Assembly (NCBI GenBank): GCA_036477555.1
Contig: JAZGDH010000079.1
Location: 1 to 27,033 of the forward strand
DNA length: 27,033 nt
Direction of reading: 5' to 3'
DNA from: Acidobacteriota bacterium
Lineage (GTDB): Bacteria; Acidobacteriota; Polarisedimenticolia; Gp22-AA2
Shown: in pieces, positions 6,230 to 26,075 of the stretch
Layout of the letters: every line of letters starts with the position of its first letter
How positions within the stretch are numbered: position 1 is the stretch's first letter
Program-made: the position numbers and the translations under genes
The notes under the pieces: model-generated
The model's input: only the letters and a program-made list of their open reading frames with translations
Databases searched by the model: none
What the model was told of the DNA's origin: nothing

Positions 6230-7801
6230 GTGAAACATCGTTCGCTTGTGGGGGGGATCGCTTTCATCGTCGCCGGCGCCGTCATCGGCGGAATGTTCGT
6301 CGGTCGCGCGGAATCCGGGACCGACACTTCCCCTGACAGGCTCGGCACCTATACCCAGCTCGTGAGTCTCGTTCAGGCCCGGGCGGCGGACGAGGTCGAC
6401 CCGCGGGTTGCCATCGAGGGGTCGATCCGCGGCATGCTCCGCTCTCTCGACCCGCACTCCAACTACCTGGATCCCGAAGATTACCGGGGCATGCTCGAGG
6501 AGCAGCACGGATCCTTCTCCGGCCTCGGAATCGTCATCTCGAAACCTTCGCTCGACAAGCCTCTCACCGTGATCTCCCCACTCGAGGAGACCCCGGCCTG
6601 GAGAGCAGGGATCCGGGCGGGAGATGTCATCTCTCAAATCGAAGGGGTCGACACGCTCGACATGGACATCGACGACGCCCTGAGGCTCCTCAAGGGTCCC
6701 CGAGGCACCCGGGTCTCGATCACGGTGACGCGTCCCGGTTACGACGAGGTGCTGCACTTCACCATCACCCGCGACAAGATCAAGACCCGCAGCATCCGGC
6801 AGGCGTTTCTCGTCCACCCGGGCACCGGCTACATCAGGATTGAGAACTTCACGCGGACCACCGATCGCGAGCTGGAGCAGAGGCTCCGGGATCTTCGCGC
6901 AGCGGGCATGGAGCGCCTGATCCTCGACCTGAGGCGCAATCCGGGCGGGCTGCTGGAGCAGGCGGTGAGGGTGTCCGATCGGTTCCTGAAGAAGAGCCAG
7001 ATGATCGTCTACACGCGCGGCCGGATCAGAGGCTCGGACCAGGAGTTCAGATCCACCGGCGAGGGAGTGCGTAACGAGCTGCCGCTGGTCGTGCTGGTGG
7101 ATAAGTACAGCGCCAGCGCCTCGGAAATTGTCGCCGGCGCGCTTCAGGACCATGATCGGGCCCTGATCGTCGGGAACACAACCTGGGGCAAGGGACTGGT
7201 GCAGACCGTCTACCCGCTCAGCCACGACGCCGCACTGGCTCTGACGACCGCGCGCTACTACACACCAAGCGGCCGTCTCATTCAGCGCGACTACCATTCG
7301 CTCGAGGACTACCTCAGCTACGAGGAGAACCTGGACGAGGCGATCACACCCAGCAGCGAGGTGCGTCGCACCGACGGTGGTCGAACCGTGTATGGTGGCG
7401 GCGGCATCCGACCCGACGTGATCGTGCCGATTCCGGAGAGATCCCGGTTCATCGATCGGCTCGAGCGCGGCCAGATGTTCTTCCATTTCGCCATCCACTA
7501 CAACACGAAGCGCAAGCTGATCCCGCGCGGCTTCGAGGTGACTGACGCCACCATCGAGGAGTTCAAACGGTTCCTGACCGCGCGCAAATTCGAATGGACC
7601 GATGAACAGATCATCGAAACCCGCCAGCGCCTCTCGAACGAGATCGAGGAGGCGATCGCCTCCGCACTGTGGGGACTCGAGGCCGGATACAAGGTCTACG
7701 CGCGAACGGATCCCCAGATCCAGAAGGCCCTCGAGCTCTTCCCCGAGGCGCGTCAGCTCGCCGAACTCTCCGACGGGCCGGAGACGGTGACCCCGCGCTG
7801 A
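6230..7801 (+). CDS. ctpA: S41 family C-terminal processing peptidase with PDZ domain (CtpA/Prc-like), N-terminal signal or anchor
   Basis: LDPHSNY, GSFSGLGI, GIRAGDVI, LILDLRRNPGGLL, catalytic SASASEIVAGAL and TWGKGLVQ, TARYYTPSGRLIQ. Confidence 0.93.
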   Translation: MKHRSLVGGIAFIVAGAVIGGMFVGRAESGTDTSPDRLGTYTQLVSLVQARAADEVDPRVAIEGSIRGMLRSLDPHSNYLDPEDYRGMLEEQHGSFSGLGIVISKPSLDKPLTVISPLEETPAWRAGIRAGDVISQIEGVDTLDMDIDDALRLLKGPRGTRVSITVTRPGYDEVLHFTITRDKIKTRSIRQAFLVHPGTGYIRIENFTRTTDRELEQRLRDLRAAGMERLILDLRRNPGGLLEQAVRVSDRFLKKSQMIVYTRGRIRGSDQEFRSTGEGVRNELPLVVLVDKYSASASEIVAGALQDHDRALIVGNTTWGKGLVQTVYPLSHDAALALTTARYYTPSGRLIQRDYHSLEDYLSYEENLDEAITPSSEVRRTDGGRTVYGGGGIRPDVIVPIPERSRFIDRLERGQMFFHFAIHYNTKRKLIPRGFEVTDATIEEFKRFLTARKFEWTDEQIIETRQRLSNEIEEAIASALWGLEAGYKVYARTDPQIQKALELFPEARQLAELSDGPETVTPR

Positions 7802-7852: not shown

Positions 7853-8512
7853 TCAGTTGGCGCTGGTCAGCAACCGGCAGGTGTCGGAATACGAACGCCT
7901 GTGGAAGGCGCAAAGCTCGTTGCGGCGCTCGGGAACCGTCATACCGTCGAGCAGCCGCGCGTGTCGATCCGCCAGACCGGCCGCTTCCCGGTAACGCTCC
8001 GCGCTCTCACCCTTTTCCCCGGAGTATTTCCCGAACAGATGATGGCGGGCCCAGAGGCGCAGGCCCTCCGGCAGGCGTGTCCGGCCGGTCTGCCGACCCA
8101 GGAGATGGAGGACGACGAGATATTTAGTCAGGTTGGCGTGATGCTCGAGCTCCAGCAGACTCACCGGGCGCCTCTCCGCCACCCGTCCCGCCAGGGTCAG
8201 CAGATGGTCGAGTTCCTCGATAAGCACCGAGAACTCGTCGATGTTCACGTCGCCGAGCCCGATCAATGGATTAAATTGCTCGAGATGCCGGACCAGCGCA
8301 TCCGGATAATAGATGGCCAGGCGAATCGAATCATGCTCCTGTCGCACCATCATCCGCGCACCGGAGGAGCGTTCGTGCTGCCCGTCTCCGTAGAGAACCT
8401 CGTATCCCTCGTCGCCGATCAGAAAAGGGCCGATGTCGTGAATCACCGGCCGCATTCCGTAGCTCCGTTCGATGATCGATTTCAGTACGACGATCAGGGG
8501 GGCAGCGTTCAT
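7853..8512 (-). CDS. Uncharacterised protein with EELDH...SLLELEHHA motif (possible zincin-like fold)
   Basis: 219 aa ORF with normal composition. Its ATG overlaps the stop of the upstream ATPase (ATGA at 8509-8512). Function unknown. Confidence 0.75.
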   Translation of the reverse strand: MNAAPLIVVLKSIIERSYGMRPVIHDIGPFLIGDEGYEVLYGDGQHERSSGARMMVRQEHDSIRLAIYYPDALVRHLEQFNPLIGLGDVNIDEFSVLIEELDHLLTLAGRVAERRPVSLLELEHHANLTKYLVVLHLLGRQTGRTRLPEGLRLWARHHLFGKYSGEKGESAERYREAAGLADRHARLLDGMTVPERRNELCAFHRRSYSDTCRLLTSAN

Positions 8513-10365
8513 GGAGTCTCGTCCTCGTACACGAAGCCGCCTCCGCTCTCGTCGACGGTAATCCGCCGCGGTCCGTGACGCAGGCGCGCATGCCGTTGCA
8601 CCTCCAGGCGCAGGGCCACTTCATCGACCGGTCGCTCGCCGCGCCGGGCCAGCCGGATCTGCCGGATCAGCTGTCGCGTCGCGTCGGGCATCGGCCCCGT
8701 TCCGTGCTGCAGGCGGCGGCTGACTTCGACGTTGCAGATCCGATCGGTCTCGGCGGTGAGGTGCCGCGCCCCATGTTCGAGACTGAACCCGCGGTCGAGA
8801 ATGGCGGCCCGTGCCGCCGGCGTGACTTCGAGCTCGATTCCGTGGCGGTCTCGATAGCGGGTCGCAATGCGGGCGATCTCCTGATCGAGAATGCGTCCGG
8901 CCGAAGAACGGGACAGCGACGAGAAGTGAATCACCTTGAGCCGGTTGAGGAACTCGGGAGGAAGCCCGCGCGTCATGGTGCGTGCCGCGGCGGCCCGACC
9001 CGGAGCCCGCGTCCCCCTGCCTCCGTACCCGATCGCCTCGCCTCGCATCGACTCTTCGCTGTAACCGAGATTCGATGTGTAGGCGATCAGGGTGGCGGGA
9101 AAACGGAGCAGCCGGCCCTTGTTATCCATCGTCGATCCTCGATCCATGATCGACAGGAAGAAACGGGGCAGCTGCGGGTGCGCCTTTTCCACCTCATCCA
9201 CCAGCACGAACGAGAGCGGCGACATCCGCGCCTTCTCGTGAAACTCCGACAGGAGGCCCTCCTCATCGCTGCGGATGAAGCCTCGAGTTGATCCTTTCAG
9301 CTCGCTGACGTCGGAGGGATGGGTGTACTGCGGGCCTTCCAGCACGAGGAAAGGTATTTCGGTCTCCCACTCCTCCTCCAGCAGCCGGACGAGGGTCTCG
9401 ATCAGATAGTTCTTACCCACCCCGGTCGGGCCGACGAGAAGGTAGCTCTGCGGTCGTGGCCGCGGTCGTGTTCCCAGGGCGGAGACCAGCAGATCGTCAC
9501 AGAGACTGTCGACGGCGGCATCCTGATCGACCACCTCGTCCTTCAAGCGCTCGCGCAGCGCGGCGACGTCGAGCGACGAAAGAAGGATCTGGCGCTCGTA
9601 GCGGGTCAGCCTCTCACCACGTTCGAGATCGGACATGTCGTCGAGGACTCCGTCGGTGGATCCTTCCGCCGCGGCCTCCCGTGGAGCCTTCGATTCTGCC
9701 GCCGTCGTCGGCGTCAGGGCGGTCGGCTTCGGCAATTCAACTTCGCGCGTCAGGCGGGAGGCTGGAGCCTGCTCGGGAGGGAGCGACGGCAGGGCCGGCT
9801 CCCACCCGCGGAAAGCTTGAAGGACCTGAGCATAGACCCGGAAGCGGGACGCGCACTGGCGGAGAAAGATCACCTCTTCATCGATCGGCAGCCGTTCCAT
9901 GAGATTGTGATCGTAAAAGTCGCGCAGCGTCCGATCCTGAGCTAGCAGTGAAAGCACCCGGCTGGCGAGACCGTAAGAGCGTGGGCCGAGGTCGGAGAGA
10001 TCAATGCCGCGGAAGATCGTCTTGCCAGCCAGTCCGACGTCGTAGAGGCATTTGTCGCCGTAGGTTTTCAGCAGATCGGGGACGCTCCAGGCCCGCACCA
10101 TCTGCGCTTCGTCTCTGGCGGCGGTGTCTCGTGGGTCGATCAGCACCGACGGCTGCCGCTCCCCCGCAAAGATGCGGTCGAGCGTTGCCGAGTCGTAGCC
10201 CTCGGTCAGCAGGAGCGAGCTGCGCATGAGGATTTCGAGCAGATACTTCATCTCCAGCTCGTCGAGCCCCGGATCGGCCAGCGCACCCTCGGCGAGACTC
10301 CGGAGCCGAGATTCAATCTCCTCGGGTGAAAGCGGCTCTGCGAATGGTGGTGTGGTGGAACTCAT
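8509..10365 (-). CDS. Single-module Clp/Hsp100 (D2-type) AAA+ ATPase fused to an unknown N-terminal domain
   Basis: Walker A GPTGVGKN (9409-9432), Walker B VDEVEKAH, sensor-1 TSN, PEFLNR, HGAR and a ClpB-D2-small-like C-terminus. There is no D1 module or Clp-N repeat. GAGGG RBS before the ATG at 10365. Confidence 0.85.
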
Positions 10366-10403: not shown

Positions 10404-10431
10404 ATTATAGGTTCCCCGGGGCGAGGATCAA
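10404..10431 (-). promoter_or_regulatory. Sigma70-type promoter for the AAA+ ATPase pair
   Basis: Minus strand TTGATC (10431-10426), 16 nt spacer, TATAAT (10409-10404), about 38 nt upstream of the ATG. Confidence 0.6.
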
Positions 10432-10499: not shown

Positions 10500-10528
10500 T
10501 TGACATCTAACCCCAATTTTTCTACTAT
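10500..10528 (+). promoter_or_regulatory. Sigma70/sigmaA promoter of groES-groEL
   Basis: TTGACA (10500-10505), 17 nt spacer, TACTAT (10523-10528). Confidence 0.85.
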
Positions 10529-10554
10529 TAGCACTCGCCTTGGCAGAGTGCTAA
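10528..10554. promoter_or_regulatory. CIRCE element (HrcA operator), perfect consensus
   Basis: TTAGCACTC-gccttggca-GAGTGCTAA, an exact 9-N9-9 match directly after the -10 box of groESL. Confidence 0.97.
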
Positions 10555-10658: not shown

Positions 10659-12660
<2,002 letters not shown>

Positions 12661-22030: not shown

Positions 22031-24667
22031 GTGAAACTCGAAAAAATGACCGTCAAATCGCAGGAGGCTCTCCAGGCCTCCCGGTCGAAAGCGGATGAGC
22101 ACGGGCACCCGGAGATCACGCCCGAACATCTTTTCGACGCCCTGCTCTCCCAGGAGGGAGGGATCGTGCCGATCCTCCTGCACCGGATCGGCGCCGACGT
22201 CGAGGCGTTGAGGCGCACATCCCGCGAGGGACTGGAATCCGCTCCCCGCGTGGAGGGAGGAGCCACGCCACAGATCGGCCGGGCGCTCGTCACGGTCCTC
22301 GAAGCGGCCGAGCGCAGGGCCGAAACCTTTCATGACGACTTCGTCTCTGCCGAGCACCTGCTCCTTGCGCTGATCGAGGGACGCAATCCTGCCGCCGAAC
22401 TGCTGAAGAAAGCCGGCGTTCGACCCGCGCTTCTTCTCGAGGCGTTGAAGTCGATCCGGGGCTCCCAGCGCGTCACGTCTCAGAACCCCGAAAATTCTTT
22501 CCAGGCTCTCGAAAAGTACGCCCGCAATCTCACCGACCTGGCCCGGCGCGGGAAGCTCGATCCGGTGATCGGCCGGGACGAGGAGATCCAGCGGGTCATC
22601 CAGGCGCTCTCACGCCGCACCAAGAACAACCCGGTGTTGATCGGAGAGCCCGGGGTCGGCAAGACGGCAATCGTGGAGGGGCTTGCCCGTCGAATCGTCG
22701 ACGGCGACGTCCCGGAGAGTCTCAAGAGCAAGGAGATCGTCGCCCTCGATCTCGGCGCTCTCATCGCCGGCGCAAAGTACCGCGGAGAGTTCGAAGATCG
22801 ATTGAAAGCTCTTCTTCGGGAGGTCGAGCAGGGAGAAGGCCGGTACGTTCTCTTCATCGATGAGATCCACACCCTGGTCGGGGCCGGCGCGGCCGAGGGG
22901 GCGGTGGACGCCGCCAACATGCTGAAGCCGGCCCTCGCGCGCGGTGATCTGAAATGCGTCGGCGCGACCACACTCAACGAATACCGGAAACATATCGAGA
23001 AGGACGCCGCTCTGGAACGCCGGTTCCAGCCGGTTCTGGTCGGCGAGCCGGGACTCGATGACACGATCGCGATCCTTCGGGGACTCAAGGAACGATACGA
23101 GGTGCACCACGGCGTGAGGATTCAGGATGCCGCCCTGATCGCAGCCGCCACACTTTCCCAGCGCTACATCAGCGATCGTTTCCTGCCCGATAAAGCGATC
23201 GATCTGATGGACGAGGCGGCTTCCCGCCTGCGGATCGAGATCGATTCGATGCCCCGCGACATCGACGTCCTCGCACGTCGTTCGACCCGGCTGGCGATCG
23301 AACAGAAGGCCCTGGAGAAGGAGACGGGCGCCGCGAGCCGCGTGCGACGGACGGAGATACGCGGTGAACTGGCCCACCTGCGTGAAGAGATCAACGGGCT
23401 GAAAGCCCAATGGAGCTCCGAGAAAAGATTCATCGACGAGATCCGCTCGGTGAAGGAACAGATCGAACAATCCCGGACGCAGGCCGAACAGGCGGAGAAA
23501 GAGGGCGATCTCGCCCGCGCCGCGGAGCAGCGTTACGGACATCTCGCGGCGCTCGAGAAGAACCTAGAGGCGACGAACGAGCGCCTGCGCCAGATCCAGG
23601 CCGACGGTCACCCGATGCTGAAGGAAGAGGTCGATGAGGAGGAGATCGCCGCCATCGTCTCTCGCTGGACCGGCATACCGGTGAGCAAGATGCTGGAGGG
23701 AGAGCTCGATCGACTTCTTCACATGGAGAAGCGGCTTGGCCGTCGGGTCGTCGGGCAGGAGGAGGCAGTCGGGTTTGTCAGTAACGCGGTGCGCCGCGCG
23801 CGCGCCGGCCTGGCCGATCCCGATCGCCCTACCGGGTCGTTCCTCTTCATGGGACCGACCGGCGTCGGAAAGACCGAGCTGGCCAAGGCGCTCGCCGAGT
23901 TTCTCTTCGACGACGAACGGGCGATGATTCGTCTCGACATGTCGGAGTACATGGAGAAGCACAGCGTCGCGCGCCTGATCGGCGCCCCCCCCGGTTACGT
24001 GGGACACGACGAGGGCGGCCAGCTGACCGAGGCGATCAGAAGGCGCCCCTACGCGGTTCTCCTGTTCGACGAGATCGAGAAAGCGCATCCGGATGTGTTC
24101 AACGCTCTTCTGCAGATTCTCGACGACGGGAGACTGACCGACGGACGCGGGCGCCTCGTCGATTTCAAGAATACGCTGATCGTCATGACCTCGAACCTCG
24201 CCGGGCCCCTGATCCAGTCCTGGGGCGGGAACGATCGGGATGGACTGCGTGCTCGCGTCGAGGCGGAGCTGAAGGAATCTTTTCGTCCGGAATTTCTCAA
24301 CAGGCTCGATGAAGTGGTCCTGTTCAACCCTCTCGGCCCCGCGGAGCTCCGCCGGGTGGTCGACATCCAGGCGTCCCGCCTGATCCGGCTGATGCGGGAC
24401 CGCGGCATCACGCTGGAGATCACCCCTCGACTGCGTGATCATCTGGCCAAGGTGGGGTACGATCCGGAGTACGGCGCGCGCCCCCTCAAACGGAAGCTGC
24501 AGCGGCTGGTCCTCGATCCGCTGGCGCGGCAGATGCTGGAGGGGCGCTTCCGTCCGGATCGGACGGTCCGTGCCGATCTTGACGACACGGCGGACCAAGT
24601 ATGCTTCGAGATGGTCGCCGCACCTGTGCCGACCACCGAAACCGAGCCGGCCGGCGTGCGTGTCTGA
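22031..24667 (+). CDS. clpB: ATP-dependent disaggregase ClpB
   Basis: Clp-N domain, D1 ([23 protein letters not shown]), coiled-coil M domain (AAEQRYG), D2 ([31 protein letters not shown]). No IGF loop. Confidence 0.97.
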
Positions 24668-25235: not shown

Positions 25236-26075
25236 ATGAACATGTTCAAGACGACCATGCTTCTGGCCCTCCTCTCGGGCATCCTGATTGCCATTGGCGG
25301 GGCGACGGGGGGGCGATCCGGTCTCATCCTCGCGCTGGCCCTCGCGGCCGGCATGAACTTTTTCGCCTACTGGTTTTCCGACCGATTCGTTCTGCGGATG
25401 TACCGGGCGATCCCGATGTCCCGCGATCAGTCTCCGGTGCTTTACGACATTCTCGAGCGGCTGACGTCTCGGGCGAATATACCGATGCCGCGAGTCTACC
25501 TGCTGCCGATGGATGCACCGAACGCCTTCGCGACGGGGCGCGATCCCCAGCACGCGGCAGTTGCTGTGACGCACGGGATCCTGAAGCTCCTCAACCCCGA
25601 AGAGCTGGAAGGGGTGCTCGCCCATGAGCTGGCGCACGTCCGTAACCGTGATGTTCTGATATCGTCCGTCGCCGCCACTCTGGGCGCTGCGATCATGGTT
25701 CTCGCACGCCTGACGATGTTCGCTGAGCTTTTCGGCGGCGGGGGCGATGATCGGGGCGGCAGGGGCTCGAATCCTCTCGCGCTGCTCGCGACGATGATAC
25801 TCGCGCCGGTCGCCGCTCTGATGATTCAATTGGCCGTGTCGCGCTCACGTGAGTTCCAGGCCGATGCCTCCGGTGCGGAGTTGGCTCGCAGCCCGCACGG
25901 CCTGGCGAGCGCCCTGCAAAAGCTCGAAGAGTACGGGAAGAGGATTCCGATGCCGGCGAGCCCGGCGACGAGCCACATGTTCATCATGAGGCCACTCAGC
26001 CGCGAGTTACTCGCGGGACTGTTCCGGACACACCCGCCGACCCGGGAACGCGTCCGTCGCCTGCTGGGTCGCTGA
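25236..26075 (+). CDS. htpX: Membrane zinc metalloprotease HtpX (M48)
   Basis: PNAFATGRDP, GVLAHELAHV, SRSREFQAD and THPP, plus transmembrane segments. Confidence 0.95.
   Translation: MNMFKTTMLLALLSGILIAIGGATGGRSGLILALALAAGMNFFAYWFSDRFVLRMYRAIPMSRDQSPVLYDILERLTSRANIPMPRVYLLPMDAPNAFATGRDPQHAAVAVTHGILKLLNPEELEGVLAHELAHVRNRDVLISSVAATLGAAIMVLARLTMFAELFGGGGDDRGGRGSNPLALLATMILAPVAALMIQLAVSRSREFQADASGAELARSPHGLASALQKLEEYGKRIPMPASPATSHMFIMRPLSRELLAGLFRTHPPTRERVRRLLGR

Follow-up and report, generated by a model that had tools for sequence, protein, structure and literature searches.

A one-ring Clp-type AAA+ ATPase with a GKN Walker A motif and a predicted zincin-like partner beside groESL in Acidobacteriota

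The window analysed here, a stretch of 27,033 nucleotides from an Acidobacteriota genome, carries two co-transcribed minus-strand genes for an AAA+ ATPase and a smaller partner protein. The ATPase gene is an open reading frame at 8509-10365 encoding 618 residues, and the region 8764-9432 singled out by an earlier sequence-only reading is its ATPase core; every motif coordinate in that reading proved correct on the minus strand. The protein consists of a family-specific helical N-domain, a linker, one AAA+ module of the ClpA/B/C D2 type and a 63-residue tail, laid out as follows:

8509-10365, minus strand: whole gene, one-ring Clp/Hsp100-type AAA+ protein of the 'GKN' family (open reading frame, Pfam, 120 full-length homologues)
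9796-10365, minus strand: N-terminal helical domain, about residues 1-190, with a conserved GDKCLYDVG...LG.RSY (model, alignment)
9586-9795, minus strand: variable Pro/Ala/Thr-rich linker, about residues 191-260, with no consensus in the family alignment (sequence)
8932-9447, minus strand: AAA+ large domain, residues 307-478 (Pfam AAA_2)
8752-8916, minus strand: D2-small (lid) domain, PF10431 (Pfam ClpB_D2-small)
8512-8700, minus strand: C-terminal extension past D2-small, residues 556-618, with a conserved G.F.Y patch at its end (alignment)

Pfam detects two domains in the AAA+ module, AAA_2 (94.8 bits; cut-off 27) and ClpB_D2-small (38.7 bits; cut-off 21.9), and inspection of the Pfam matches and the sequence found a single Walker A and no Clp_N domain. 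The N-domain is all helical in an AlphaFold model (pLDDT 81) and has no match in Pfam or Foldseek; its best VIA Z of 6.4, to generic arrays (MIT, TPR, alpha-SNAP), is not significant for helical folds, and its Atlas TM is at most 0.41. Its conserved motif is also found in distant GKN relatives, which carry an LPY patch matching the G.F.Y of the C-tail. In the family alignment, R571, R578, F611 and Y613 of this tail are nearly invariant.

Motif conservation was counted over 120 full-length homologues of the ATPase, down to 41% identity, for these elements of the ATP site and pore:

9409-9432, minus strand: Walker A GPTGVGKN, residues 312-319, Asn in place of the usual Thr/Ser
9271-9282, minus strand: pore-1 loop GFIR, residues 362-365, aligned to and in place of GYVG of ClpA/B/C
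9193-9198, minus strand: Walker B Asp-Glu, D390/E391 (D in 119, E in 120)
9070-9078, minus strand: sensor 1 TSN, residues 430-432 (T 120, S 118, N 120)
8941-8958, minus strand: PEFLNR, residues 470-475, with Arg finger R475 (R in 119)
8764-8772, minus strand: sensor 2 GAR, residues 532-534 (G 120, A 119, R 119)

The Clp/Hsp100 D2 catalytic residues D390, E391, N432, R475 and R534 are each kept in 119-120 of the 120 sequences, and all catalytic elements (the Walker A Lys, Walker B Asp-Glu, sensor 1, Arg finger and sensor 2) are under strong selection. The Walker A departs from the canonical GxxGxGK[T/S] only at Asn319, an AAC codon at 9409-9411, which is present in 120/120 homologues with the Lys retained and in each of the 33 one-ring proteins of the wider clade. 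The pore loop residues G, F, I and R are kept in 120, 118, 117 and 119 homologues, respectively; compared with GYVG, the aromatic and hydrophobic pair is retained and the last residue is Arg. Because this loop and the complete set of catalytic motifs are preserved, the proposal of a one-ring translocase is a reasonable reading of the sequence. [quoted passage not shown] A ClpB whose canonical Walker A was made non-canonical, as in torsin, is described in work cited there as having lowered, not abolished, activity (PMC5628414).

The second distinctive element lies in the loop that follows sensor 1. ClpX, ClpA, ClpC and ClpE dock ClpP by a [LIV]-G-[FL] motif on a flexible loop at this place, where the ATPase has:

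8965-9069, minus strand: loop between sensor 1 and the Arg-finger helix, residues 433-467, of ClpA/C length
9025-9033, minus strand: I445-G446-Y447 at the position of the ClpP-docking loop (alignment column, conservation)

HMMER and MAFFT alignments both bear out this placement: IGY occupies the same column as VGF of B. subtilis ClpC and IGL of E. coli ClpA, as well as MGF and IGF of the ClpC-like and ClpA-like proteins encoded in the same genome. The loop is 7 residues longer than in the ClpB encoded in the window; BLASTP reproduced the claimed gap-free alignment to the ClpB D2 from Walker B to TSN and, as had been noted, ClpB has no counterpart of EAIGYGG after TSN, being deleted there by 7 residues. 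Conservation of the motif, which the earlier reading had left to be checked, is high (I 117, G 120 and Y 117 of 120), with Pro preceding it in 104/120. Adjacent loop positions are variable, and P-I-G-Y ranks among the best conserved positions of the whole ATPase. The conservation of IGY, GKN and GFIR is far beyond chance. Measured against [LIV]-G-[FL], the conserved motif agrees in its place and in the length of its loop but differs in the third residue, Tyr in 117/120. Some family members have Phe there, and [ILVM]-G-[FY] holds for almost all of the GKN clade, distant relatives with GYVG retained among them; [VL]-G-Y is present in two-ring Clp proteins too. Docking of the ATPase on ClpP is plausible, with docking on the partner protein described below as a live rival.

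Relationships to known Hsp100 proteins were assessed by sequence searches and a tree. The ATPase is 34% identical to the window's ClpB (22031-24667; BLASTP, E 2e-35), and its closest solved relatives in a PDB profile search are ClpC (190 bits), ClpB D2 (187), ClpA (175), Skd3 (112) and ClpX (41). NCBIfam equivalogs score far below their cut-offs (ClpA 145 vs 993, TssH 134 vs 885, ClpB 130 vs 1232 bits), and these scores, together with the one Walker A and the lack of Clp_N, rule out membership in ClpA, ClpB, ClpC or ClpV proper. The distinction from ClpX and HslU drawn earlier holds: a ClpX score of 27.2 bits (cut-off 359) and an N-domain that is all helical and without a Pfam match exclude ClpX membership, and no HslU appears in NCBIfam matches at E up to 0.01 or among the best 60 PDB profile matches. 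Skd3/CLPB shares the single D2-type ring and was rejected since Pfam detects no ankyrin repeats in the ATPase. The likeness to torsins stands for the single Asn and fails beyond it: Pfam gives no Torsin match up to an E of 0.1, the best 60 solved relatives include no torsin, and R475 provides a conserved Arg finger, which torsins lack (PMC5628414); kinship is rejected at the sequence level. In PADLOC, the ATPase matched PDC-M37B and DolB over no more than part of its AAA core, which we read as generic AAA_2 similarity rather than a place in a defence system.

In a tree from which torsin, Skd3 and B. subtilis ClpC were absent, every one-ring module with GKN falls into a single clade (support 94/92) apart from the sampled ClpA/B/C D2 modules. 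The suggested derivation from a ClpC D2 is thus not upheld, as the clade is not nested in ClpC. The other D2 modules group together at no more than 76/79, and ClpX, as the root, sits on a very long branch, which limits the placing of the GKN branching point. By sequence, the GKN ATPases make up an undescribed family of one-ring Clp-type unfoldases from uncultured Acidobacteriota. Full-length GKN relatives were also found on contigs labelled as DPANN archaea. A metagenome scan with an alignment of distant GKN relatives found GKN in 0/80 loci, ordinary ClpB/C-type loci dominating. Among 301 genomes of the phylum of one Woesearchaeota contig (L093), the single match was a one-ring protein with GKT, which is not a GKN family member; in the genome containing L093, a homologue of the partner is present and the ATPase is absent.

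The partner is encoded immediately downstream, its start codon overlapping the ATPase stop:

7853-8512, minus strand: partner, 219 aa, co-transcribed, start overlapping the ATPase stop (ATGA)
8204-8218, minus strand: invariant motif E99-E100-x-x-H103 of the partner
8144-8146, minus strand: downstream Glu, E123 of the partner

The motif reads E99-E100-L-D-H103 ... E123 and is invariant in 39/39 sequences and in all 58 loci. The Glu 20 residues after EExxH has the thermolysin spacing, in paired and solitary copies alike; relative to the gluzincin signature of HExxH plus a downstream Glu, a Glu replaces the first His. The predicted model is confident (pLDDT 91.4), and its best 34 VIA matches (Z 10.6 to 6.8) are all of zinc-metallopeptidase or zincin type except a DUF885 protein and a TFIID chain. 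The best VIA-align match, factor F3, has a Z of 10.6, moderate only, with an rmsd of 4.0 over 170 aligned residues. No match was found by Foldseek at E up to 0.001, in Pfam (with the single sequence or 39 members), in NCBIfam or in PADLOC, and Atlas scores were below 0.8. A zincin-like fold is predicted for the partner from its model.

The two genes are tightly associated. The partner lies directly downstream of the ATPase in 20/20 loci of relatives and in 46/58 GTDB loci; the ATPase was never found without it, and the partner occurs alone in 12/32 relatives. The ATPase is obligately paired with a partner that can exist by itself. Beside the pair, groES is present in 47/58 loci and groEL in 46/58, in a fixed arrangement; throughout the class, the pair is oriented divergently from a CIRCE-controlled groESL. 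The window has the following regulatory elements:

10404-10431, minus strand: candidate sigma-70-like promoter of the two-gene operon, TTGATC-16-TATAAT (consensus scan only)
10528-10554: CIRCE element

This fixed place beside a CIRCE-regulated groESL would put the pair in protein quality control and points to a function in the stress proteostasis of Acidobacteriota (Polarisedimenticolia). Taken together, the obligate pairing, the partner's existence alone and the groESL linkage, none of them part of the earlier reading, also open the possibility that the IGY loop has a receptor other than ClpP.

The reading we favour, at a probability of roughly 0.42, is a one-ring Hsp100 unfoldase that docks by default on ClpP through IGY and has the zincin-like protein as its obligate working partner. 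The ATPase would assemble as a hexamer and use ATP to thread proteins through its pore, and the IGY loops would seat this ring on a peptidase ring. The default receptor would be ClpP; it is encoded by the same genome (G000:C263:7155-7694, E 2e-83) and by each of the 20 relatives with a completeness of 90% or more. The co-translated zincin-like protein may select substrates or serve as an adaptor, or it may be a second peptidase with the same clients. Replacement of Thr by Asn in Walker A, invariant in the family, probably slows or gates hydrolysis, tuning it without abolishing it, and the pair would work in protein quality control. Several observations count against ClpP docking: clpP is near the pair in 0/58 loci, ClpX, the ClpC-like and the ClpA-like protein already give the genome three ClpP partners with the loop, and Tyr stands third in the loop motif where Phe or Leu is classical. 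As the ATPase never occurs without a partner that is itself solitary in 12/32 relatives, a machine centred on the partner fits no less well than one centred on ClpP.

Such a machine, which we consider unlikely, would be a two-component ATP-dependent metalloprotease: the ring would dock through its IGY loops, its C-tail or both on a putative partner oligomer and feed it unfolded chains, as a split analogue of FtsH in which ClpP has no part. Translational coupling, the absence of the ATPase without its partner and the unlinked clpP all fit, as do the confident partner model with its nearly uniform zincin/gluzincin catalytic-domain matches and the invariant E-E-x-x-H plus Glu at thermolysin spacing in paired and solitary copies. 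The Glu in place of the first zinc-binding His, however, makes catalysis putative; the Z of about 10 is moderate, neither sequence comparison with peptidase families nor Foldseek gives a match, and the partner functions without the ATPase in many genomes. Nor is an IGF-type loop known to us to bind any receptor except ClpP. In its fullest form, IGY loops docked on a zincin-like partner oligomer in place of ClpP would make the pair a new two-component ATP-dependent protease, a Clp-type ring feeding an EExxH metallopeptidase, with the first non-ClpP receptor for an IGF-type loop and GKN as an old one-ring lineage sister to the ClpA/B/C D2; this whole we regard as rather improbable.

A chaperone of the ClpB or Skd3 kind that remodels or disaggregates proteins independently of ClpP, acting on or with the partner (for example by unfolding, activating or recycling it) with IGY as an inherited loop now used for another contact, appears more doubtful again. 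One-ring D2-type machines without a peptidase do exist, as in Skd3, the locus is tied to groESL, and the asymmetric dependence, in which the ATPase needs the partner and not the reverse, suits a dedicated helper. Yet lineages that do not use ClpP are without the loop motif (ClpB here; ClpB and ClpIb in PMC10149685). The strong conservation of P-I-G-Y in the ATPase also speaks against a chaperone of this kind. Torsin cofactors are reported to supply the Arg finger that torsins lack. Very improbable is a torsin-like switch, in which a GKN ring nearly inactive alone is activated by the partner as torsins are by LAP1 and LULL1: the invariant GKN identical to the torsin Walker A (PMC5628414) and the obligate partner agree with it, but R475 is conserved in 119/120 homologues, neither Pfam nor the solved relatives point to a torsin, and the predicted partner fold is zincin-like, not AAA-like.

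The GKN ATPase is a well-conserved, class-wide one-ring Clp lineage with a new N-domain, a torsin-type Walker A clearly under selection, a ClpP-style loop and an obligate neighbour with a predicted peptidase-like fold. Bacterial AAA+ proteases are viewed as a short closed list (ClpXP, ClpAP/CP, HslUV, Lon and FtsH), which it would extend either by a fourth kind of ClpP partner, one whose co-factor is built in, or by a new pairing of unfoldase and peptidase. The GKN ATPase also offers a bacterial, genetically simple setting for a question from torsin biology, the effect of GKN on an otherwise complete AAA+ site, in a group (Polarisedimenticolia) with almost no experimental biology so far.

Among known systems, the D2 modules of ClpC, ClpA and ClpE are the best sequence matches, and both they and the GKN ATPase have AAA_2 plus D2-small. 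ClpC and ClpA share its sensor and Arg-finger motifs, post-sensor-1 loop length and hydrophobic-Gly-aromatic tip in the same column. Unlike these two-ring proteins, the GKN ATPase has one ring, no Clp_N, D1 or M-domain, its own N-domain and C-tail, a GKN Walker A, a GFIR pore loop, an IGY tip, a separate clade and an obligate zincin-like neighbour. The ClpB/Hsp104 D2 is also close, but ClpB is a two-ring protein with an M-domain, and its loop is shorter and lacks the docking motif. Skd3 (human CLPB), a disaggregase, likewise places a single D2-type ring after a non-Clp N-domain; its similarity is weaker than that of ClpA/B/C, and its ankyrin repeats have no Pfam counterpart in the GKN ATPase. 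To our knowledge, Skd3 has no ClpP-type loop motif. Torsins share the GxxxxGKN Walker A and canonical Walker B (PMC5628414), whereas the GKN ATPase is bacterial, has an Arg finger and an aromatic pore loop and shows no evident signal peptide. ClpX and HslU, the classical one-ring partners of ClpP and HslV, also have one AAA+ ring, and ClpX too uses an IGF-type loop, but the GKN ATPase has no zinc-finger N-domain and matches ClpX poorly. ClpI of Actinomycetota is a recently recognised extra Clp class that was likewise found by bioinformatics, with its role inferred from the presence or absence of an LGF loop (PMC10149685); unlike the GKN ATPase, it has two rings, an M-domain and a canonical Walker A, and belongs to a different phylum. 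FtsH, an AAA+ ring fused to an M41 peptidase, resembles the GKN system in pairing an AAA+ unfoldase with a zincin-fold protein, whereas the GKN system is encoded by two genes and has a Clp-type rather than classical-clade AAA module, EExxH in place of HExxH and no visible membrane anchor.

The range studied (8764-9432, minus strand) lies inside a single 618-aa ORF (8509-10365), and reading of this strand recovered every motif of the sequence-only reading where it had been placed:

9409-9432, minus strand: Walker A GPTGVGKN, with the Asn319 codon AAC at 9409-9411
9271-9282, minus strand: pore loop GFIR
residues 390-391, minus strand: Walker B D390-E391
residues 430-432, minus strand: sensor 1 TSN
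9025-9033, minus strand: IGY (residues 445-447)
residues 470-475, minus strand: PEFLNR, including R475
8764-8772, minus strand: GAR (residues 532-534)

Pfam assigned AAA_2 to residues 307-478 (94.8 bits) and ClpB_D2-small to residues 484-538 (38.7 bits), with no assignment for residues 1-300. Only the D2 halves of ClpA, TssH, ClpB, ClpK and ClpG were matched in NCBIfam, at about one-tenth of the cut-offs. As originally described, alignment with the window's own ClpB (34% identity, E 2e-35) was free of gaps from Walker B to sensor 1, and ClpB carries no EAIGYGG motif, having a 7-residue deletion precisely opposite it.

The IGY tripeptide occupies the ClpP-docking-loop position. HMMER aligned AIGYGG onto YVGFNV of B. 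subtilis ClpC, and MAFFT placed IGY in the same column as IGL of E. coli ClpA and the IGF and MGF of two-ring ClpA-like (contig C359) and ClpC-like (contig C79) proteins of the same genome, both genes being cut by contig ends; in both ClpB proteins of this alignment the loop is shorter and the motif absent. Presence or absence of an LGF loop discriminates ClpC from ClpB (PMC10149685). From 5.8 billion proteins searched we obtained at least 120 relatives of full length (590-690 aa, 41-91% identity), all from metagenome bins with the possible exception of 'Acidobacteria bacterium Mor1'; those with taxon labels were mostly Acidobacteriota or 'Candidatus Polarisedimenticolia' bins, and none was annotated beyond 'AAA family ATPase' or 'MoxR-like ATPase'. 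Across 120 aligned homologues, I-G-Y was conserved in 117, 120 and 117, usually just after a proline (104), while ten loop positions on each side had no majority residue; a fixed tripeptide in an otherwise variable loop is what characterizes a docking tip. Tyrosine at the third tip position is not unique to this family, since several ordinary two-ring Clp proteins in our tree have [VL]-G-Y tips. Separately, locus L178 (7301-9097, minus strand) in genome G123, which belongs to the phylum of the Woesearchaeota contig L093, encodes a 598-aa one-ring D2-type protein with canonical GKT and GYVG, an AIGY tip and a different N-domain; a Gly-Tyr tip on a one-ring D2-type protein is therefore not confined to the GKN clade.

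The remaining motifs were equally constant: Asn319 in 120 of 120, D390/E391 in 119 and 120, G-F-I-R in 120, 118, 117 and 119, T-S-N in 120, 118 and 120, R475 in 119, and G-A-R in 120, 119 and 119. By sequence, the site is thus a complete AAA+ active site except for the Walker A Thr-to-Asn change, accompanied by an aromatic-hydrophobic pore loop and a conserved docking-type loop. The intact catalytic set argues that GKN is functional and maintained by selection rather than a product of decay.

When the family profile was run against all PDB sequences, ClpC (190 bits), ClpB D2 (187), ClpC1, ClpE, ClpA (175) and Hsp104 ranked first, with Skd3 (112) and ClpX (41) lower; neither torsin nor HslU was among the best 60 matches, and Pfam Torsin did not match the ATPase at E up to 0.1. 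The proposed separation from ClpX (27 bits in NCBIfam, cut-off 359) and from HslU was thereby borne out. More distant one-ring relatives (28-34% identity) came from an exhaustive HMMER search over 1.84 billion cluster representatives; they too have GKN, an [ILVM]-G-F loop and, following sensor 1, N[IL]GYS. In most of these the pore loop is the canonical GY[VI]G, and three come from bins labelled Nanoarchaeota, Nanobdellota or Woesearchaeota. They have in common with the acidobacterial family both the N-domain motif GDSC.Y..GF.G...LG...Y and a C-terminal LPY patch, and are therefore full-length relatives.

We built a maximum-likelihood tree from 75 D2-type modules, with ClpX as root and with torsin, Skd3 and HslU not included; in it, GKN modules formed one clade (UFBoot 94, SH-aLRT 92; 93% of bootstrap trees), within which the GFIR family had 100% SH-aLRT support in a quick tree. 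This clade lay outside every sampled GKT module, including E. coli ClpA and ClpB and the genome's own ClpA-like, ClpC-like and ClpB modules. The GKN modules thus appear, on sequence, to be a lineage of their own and not nested in ClpC, so that the earlier label 'ClpC-D2-derived' did not survive; their precise origin is not supported, because monophyly of the GKT side reached only 76/79 and the root branch is long. In the same tree, P0139, P0143 and P0148 (∼1020 aa, three Walker A motifs each) formed their own strongly supported clade, suggesting three tandem Clp D2-like modules; AAA_2-type modules also occur in the giant proteins P0161 (4896 aa) and P0171 (7819 aa).

The gene order is groEL <- groES / ATPase -> partner / <- S41 peptidase - TatC, with the following features:

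11005-12660: groEL
starts at ∼10659: groES
10528-10554: perfect CIRCE inverted repeat, TTAGCACTC-N9-GAGTGCTAA, upstream of groES/groEL
within 10500-10554: groES promoter TTGACA-17-TACTAT, abutting CIRCE, upstream of groES/groEL
10431-10404, minus strand: the ATPase's own sigma-70-like candidate site
7853-8512, minus strand: partner ORF, 219 aa, start overlapping the ATPase stop (ATGA)
6230-7801, plus strand: S41 C-terminal processing peptidase with an N-terminal membrane helix
5023-5811, minus strand: TatC
22031-24667, plus strand: full ClpB (1306 bits, above cut-off)
25236-26075, plus strand: M48 peptidase

The perfect CIRCE beside the groES promoter indicates that the groESL operon is probably HrcA-controlled. 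The surroundings contain many proteostasis and export genes (S41, TatC, ClpB, M48), and in many relatives the S41 and TatC genes are syntenic with the pair. With the partner as query against GTDB species genomes, groES was present in 47 and groEL in 46 of 58 loci, at partner identities as low as 37%; clpP was present in none of the 58. In the window's genome, clpP, clpX and lon lie together on another contig (G000:C263:4391-7694), the ClpX loop reads MGF, and ClpP was found in all 20 relatives at least 90% complete.

The partner lies immediately downstream of the ATPase in 20/20 relatives' loci and in 46 of the 58 GTDB loci. Pfam, NCBIfam and PADLOC all gave no match for its ORF, and Foldseek returned none for its AlphaFold model (pLDDT 91.4, pTM 0.89). 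Exhaustive structural alignment against 48,161 chains gave Z scores from 10.6 (rmsd 4.0, 170 residues aligned) to 6.8; the top 34 rows were of zinc-metallopeptidase or zincin type, save a DUF885 protein and a TFIID chain, and included M1 aminopeptidases, LTA4 hydrolase, ACE, M3, thermolysin, M30 and M36. E99-E100-x-x-H103 is invariant on a long helix with E123 twenty residues on, which is gluzincin spacing with Glu in place of the first His. The model indicates that a zincin-like fold is probable. Solitary partner homologues outside Acidobacteriota (32-38% identity) keep EELDH, as in Poribacteria (L056), Schekmanbacteria (L084) and the Woesearchaeota contig PWLK01000019.1 (L093:2464-3126, labelled DPANN archaeon), whose genome yielded no GKN ATPase.

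In the set made up of the window's genome and 40 relatives, 21 genomes were found to have the ATPase and 32 the partner, including all ATPase genomes but one, in which the ATPase is a fragment lying at the end of a contig. The partner stands alone in twelve, among them the unpublished genome G014, without which the pattern is unchanged; three of the twelve are 99-100% complete (G003, G018, G022), and five, each at least 92% complete, lack any DNA that could encode GPTGVGKN. The dependence is therefore one-sided, the ATPase requiring the partner and the partner not requiring the ATPase. Seven GTDB loci that have only the partner keep it in the identical place, with the ATPase gone:

L042, L043, L045, L046, L047, L050 and L051, related Acidobacteriota: partner between groES and the S41 peptidase gene

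The ATPase seems to have been lost in particular lineages, because the pair is present in all sampled families of the class. The ATPase thus has an obligate neighbour with a predicted peptidase-like fold and a chaperone-locus address.

The ATPase would form a hexameric, ATP-driven protein translocase that passes substrates on to a peptidase. To our knowledge, ClpP is the sole receptor of such loops. For this reason, and because the motif is absent from lineages that do not use ClpP (ClpB, ClpIb; PMC10149685), we take ClpP as the default receptor, with a probability of roughly 0.4. Docking of the ring on the zincin-like partner, as a split FtsH-like protease, is a less likely candidate, favored by the strict dependence of the ATPase on that protein, the lack of clpP linkage and the Tyr of the loop tip. 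That the ATPase is a ClpP-independent helper of the partner seems slightly more doubtful still. A cofactor-gated, torsin-style switch is the least likely and quite improbable, because the ATPase has the Arg finger that torsins lack and its partner is not AAA-like. The torsin resemblance of the Walker A itself is sound, that of torsinA being GxxxxGKN (PMC5628414). Since making the canonical Walker A of ClpB non-canonical lowered activity without abolishing it (PMC5628414), it is a fair inference that GKN may slow or gate the ATPase activity.

A literature search found no paper on a bacterial GKN Clp-type ring or on the ATPase-partner pair. Compared for membership with ClpA, ClpB, ClpC, ClpV, ClpX, HslU, torsin and Skd3, the ATPase fell outside every one tested. 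Nearest in spirit is ClpI, also described by bioinformatics, although ClpI is two-ringed and the ATPase one-ringed; in its inferred mechanism, the system that the ATPase would most resemble is the ClpA/C D2 ring.
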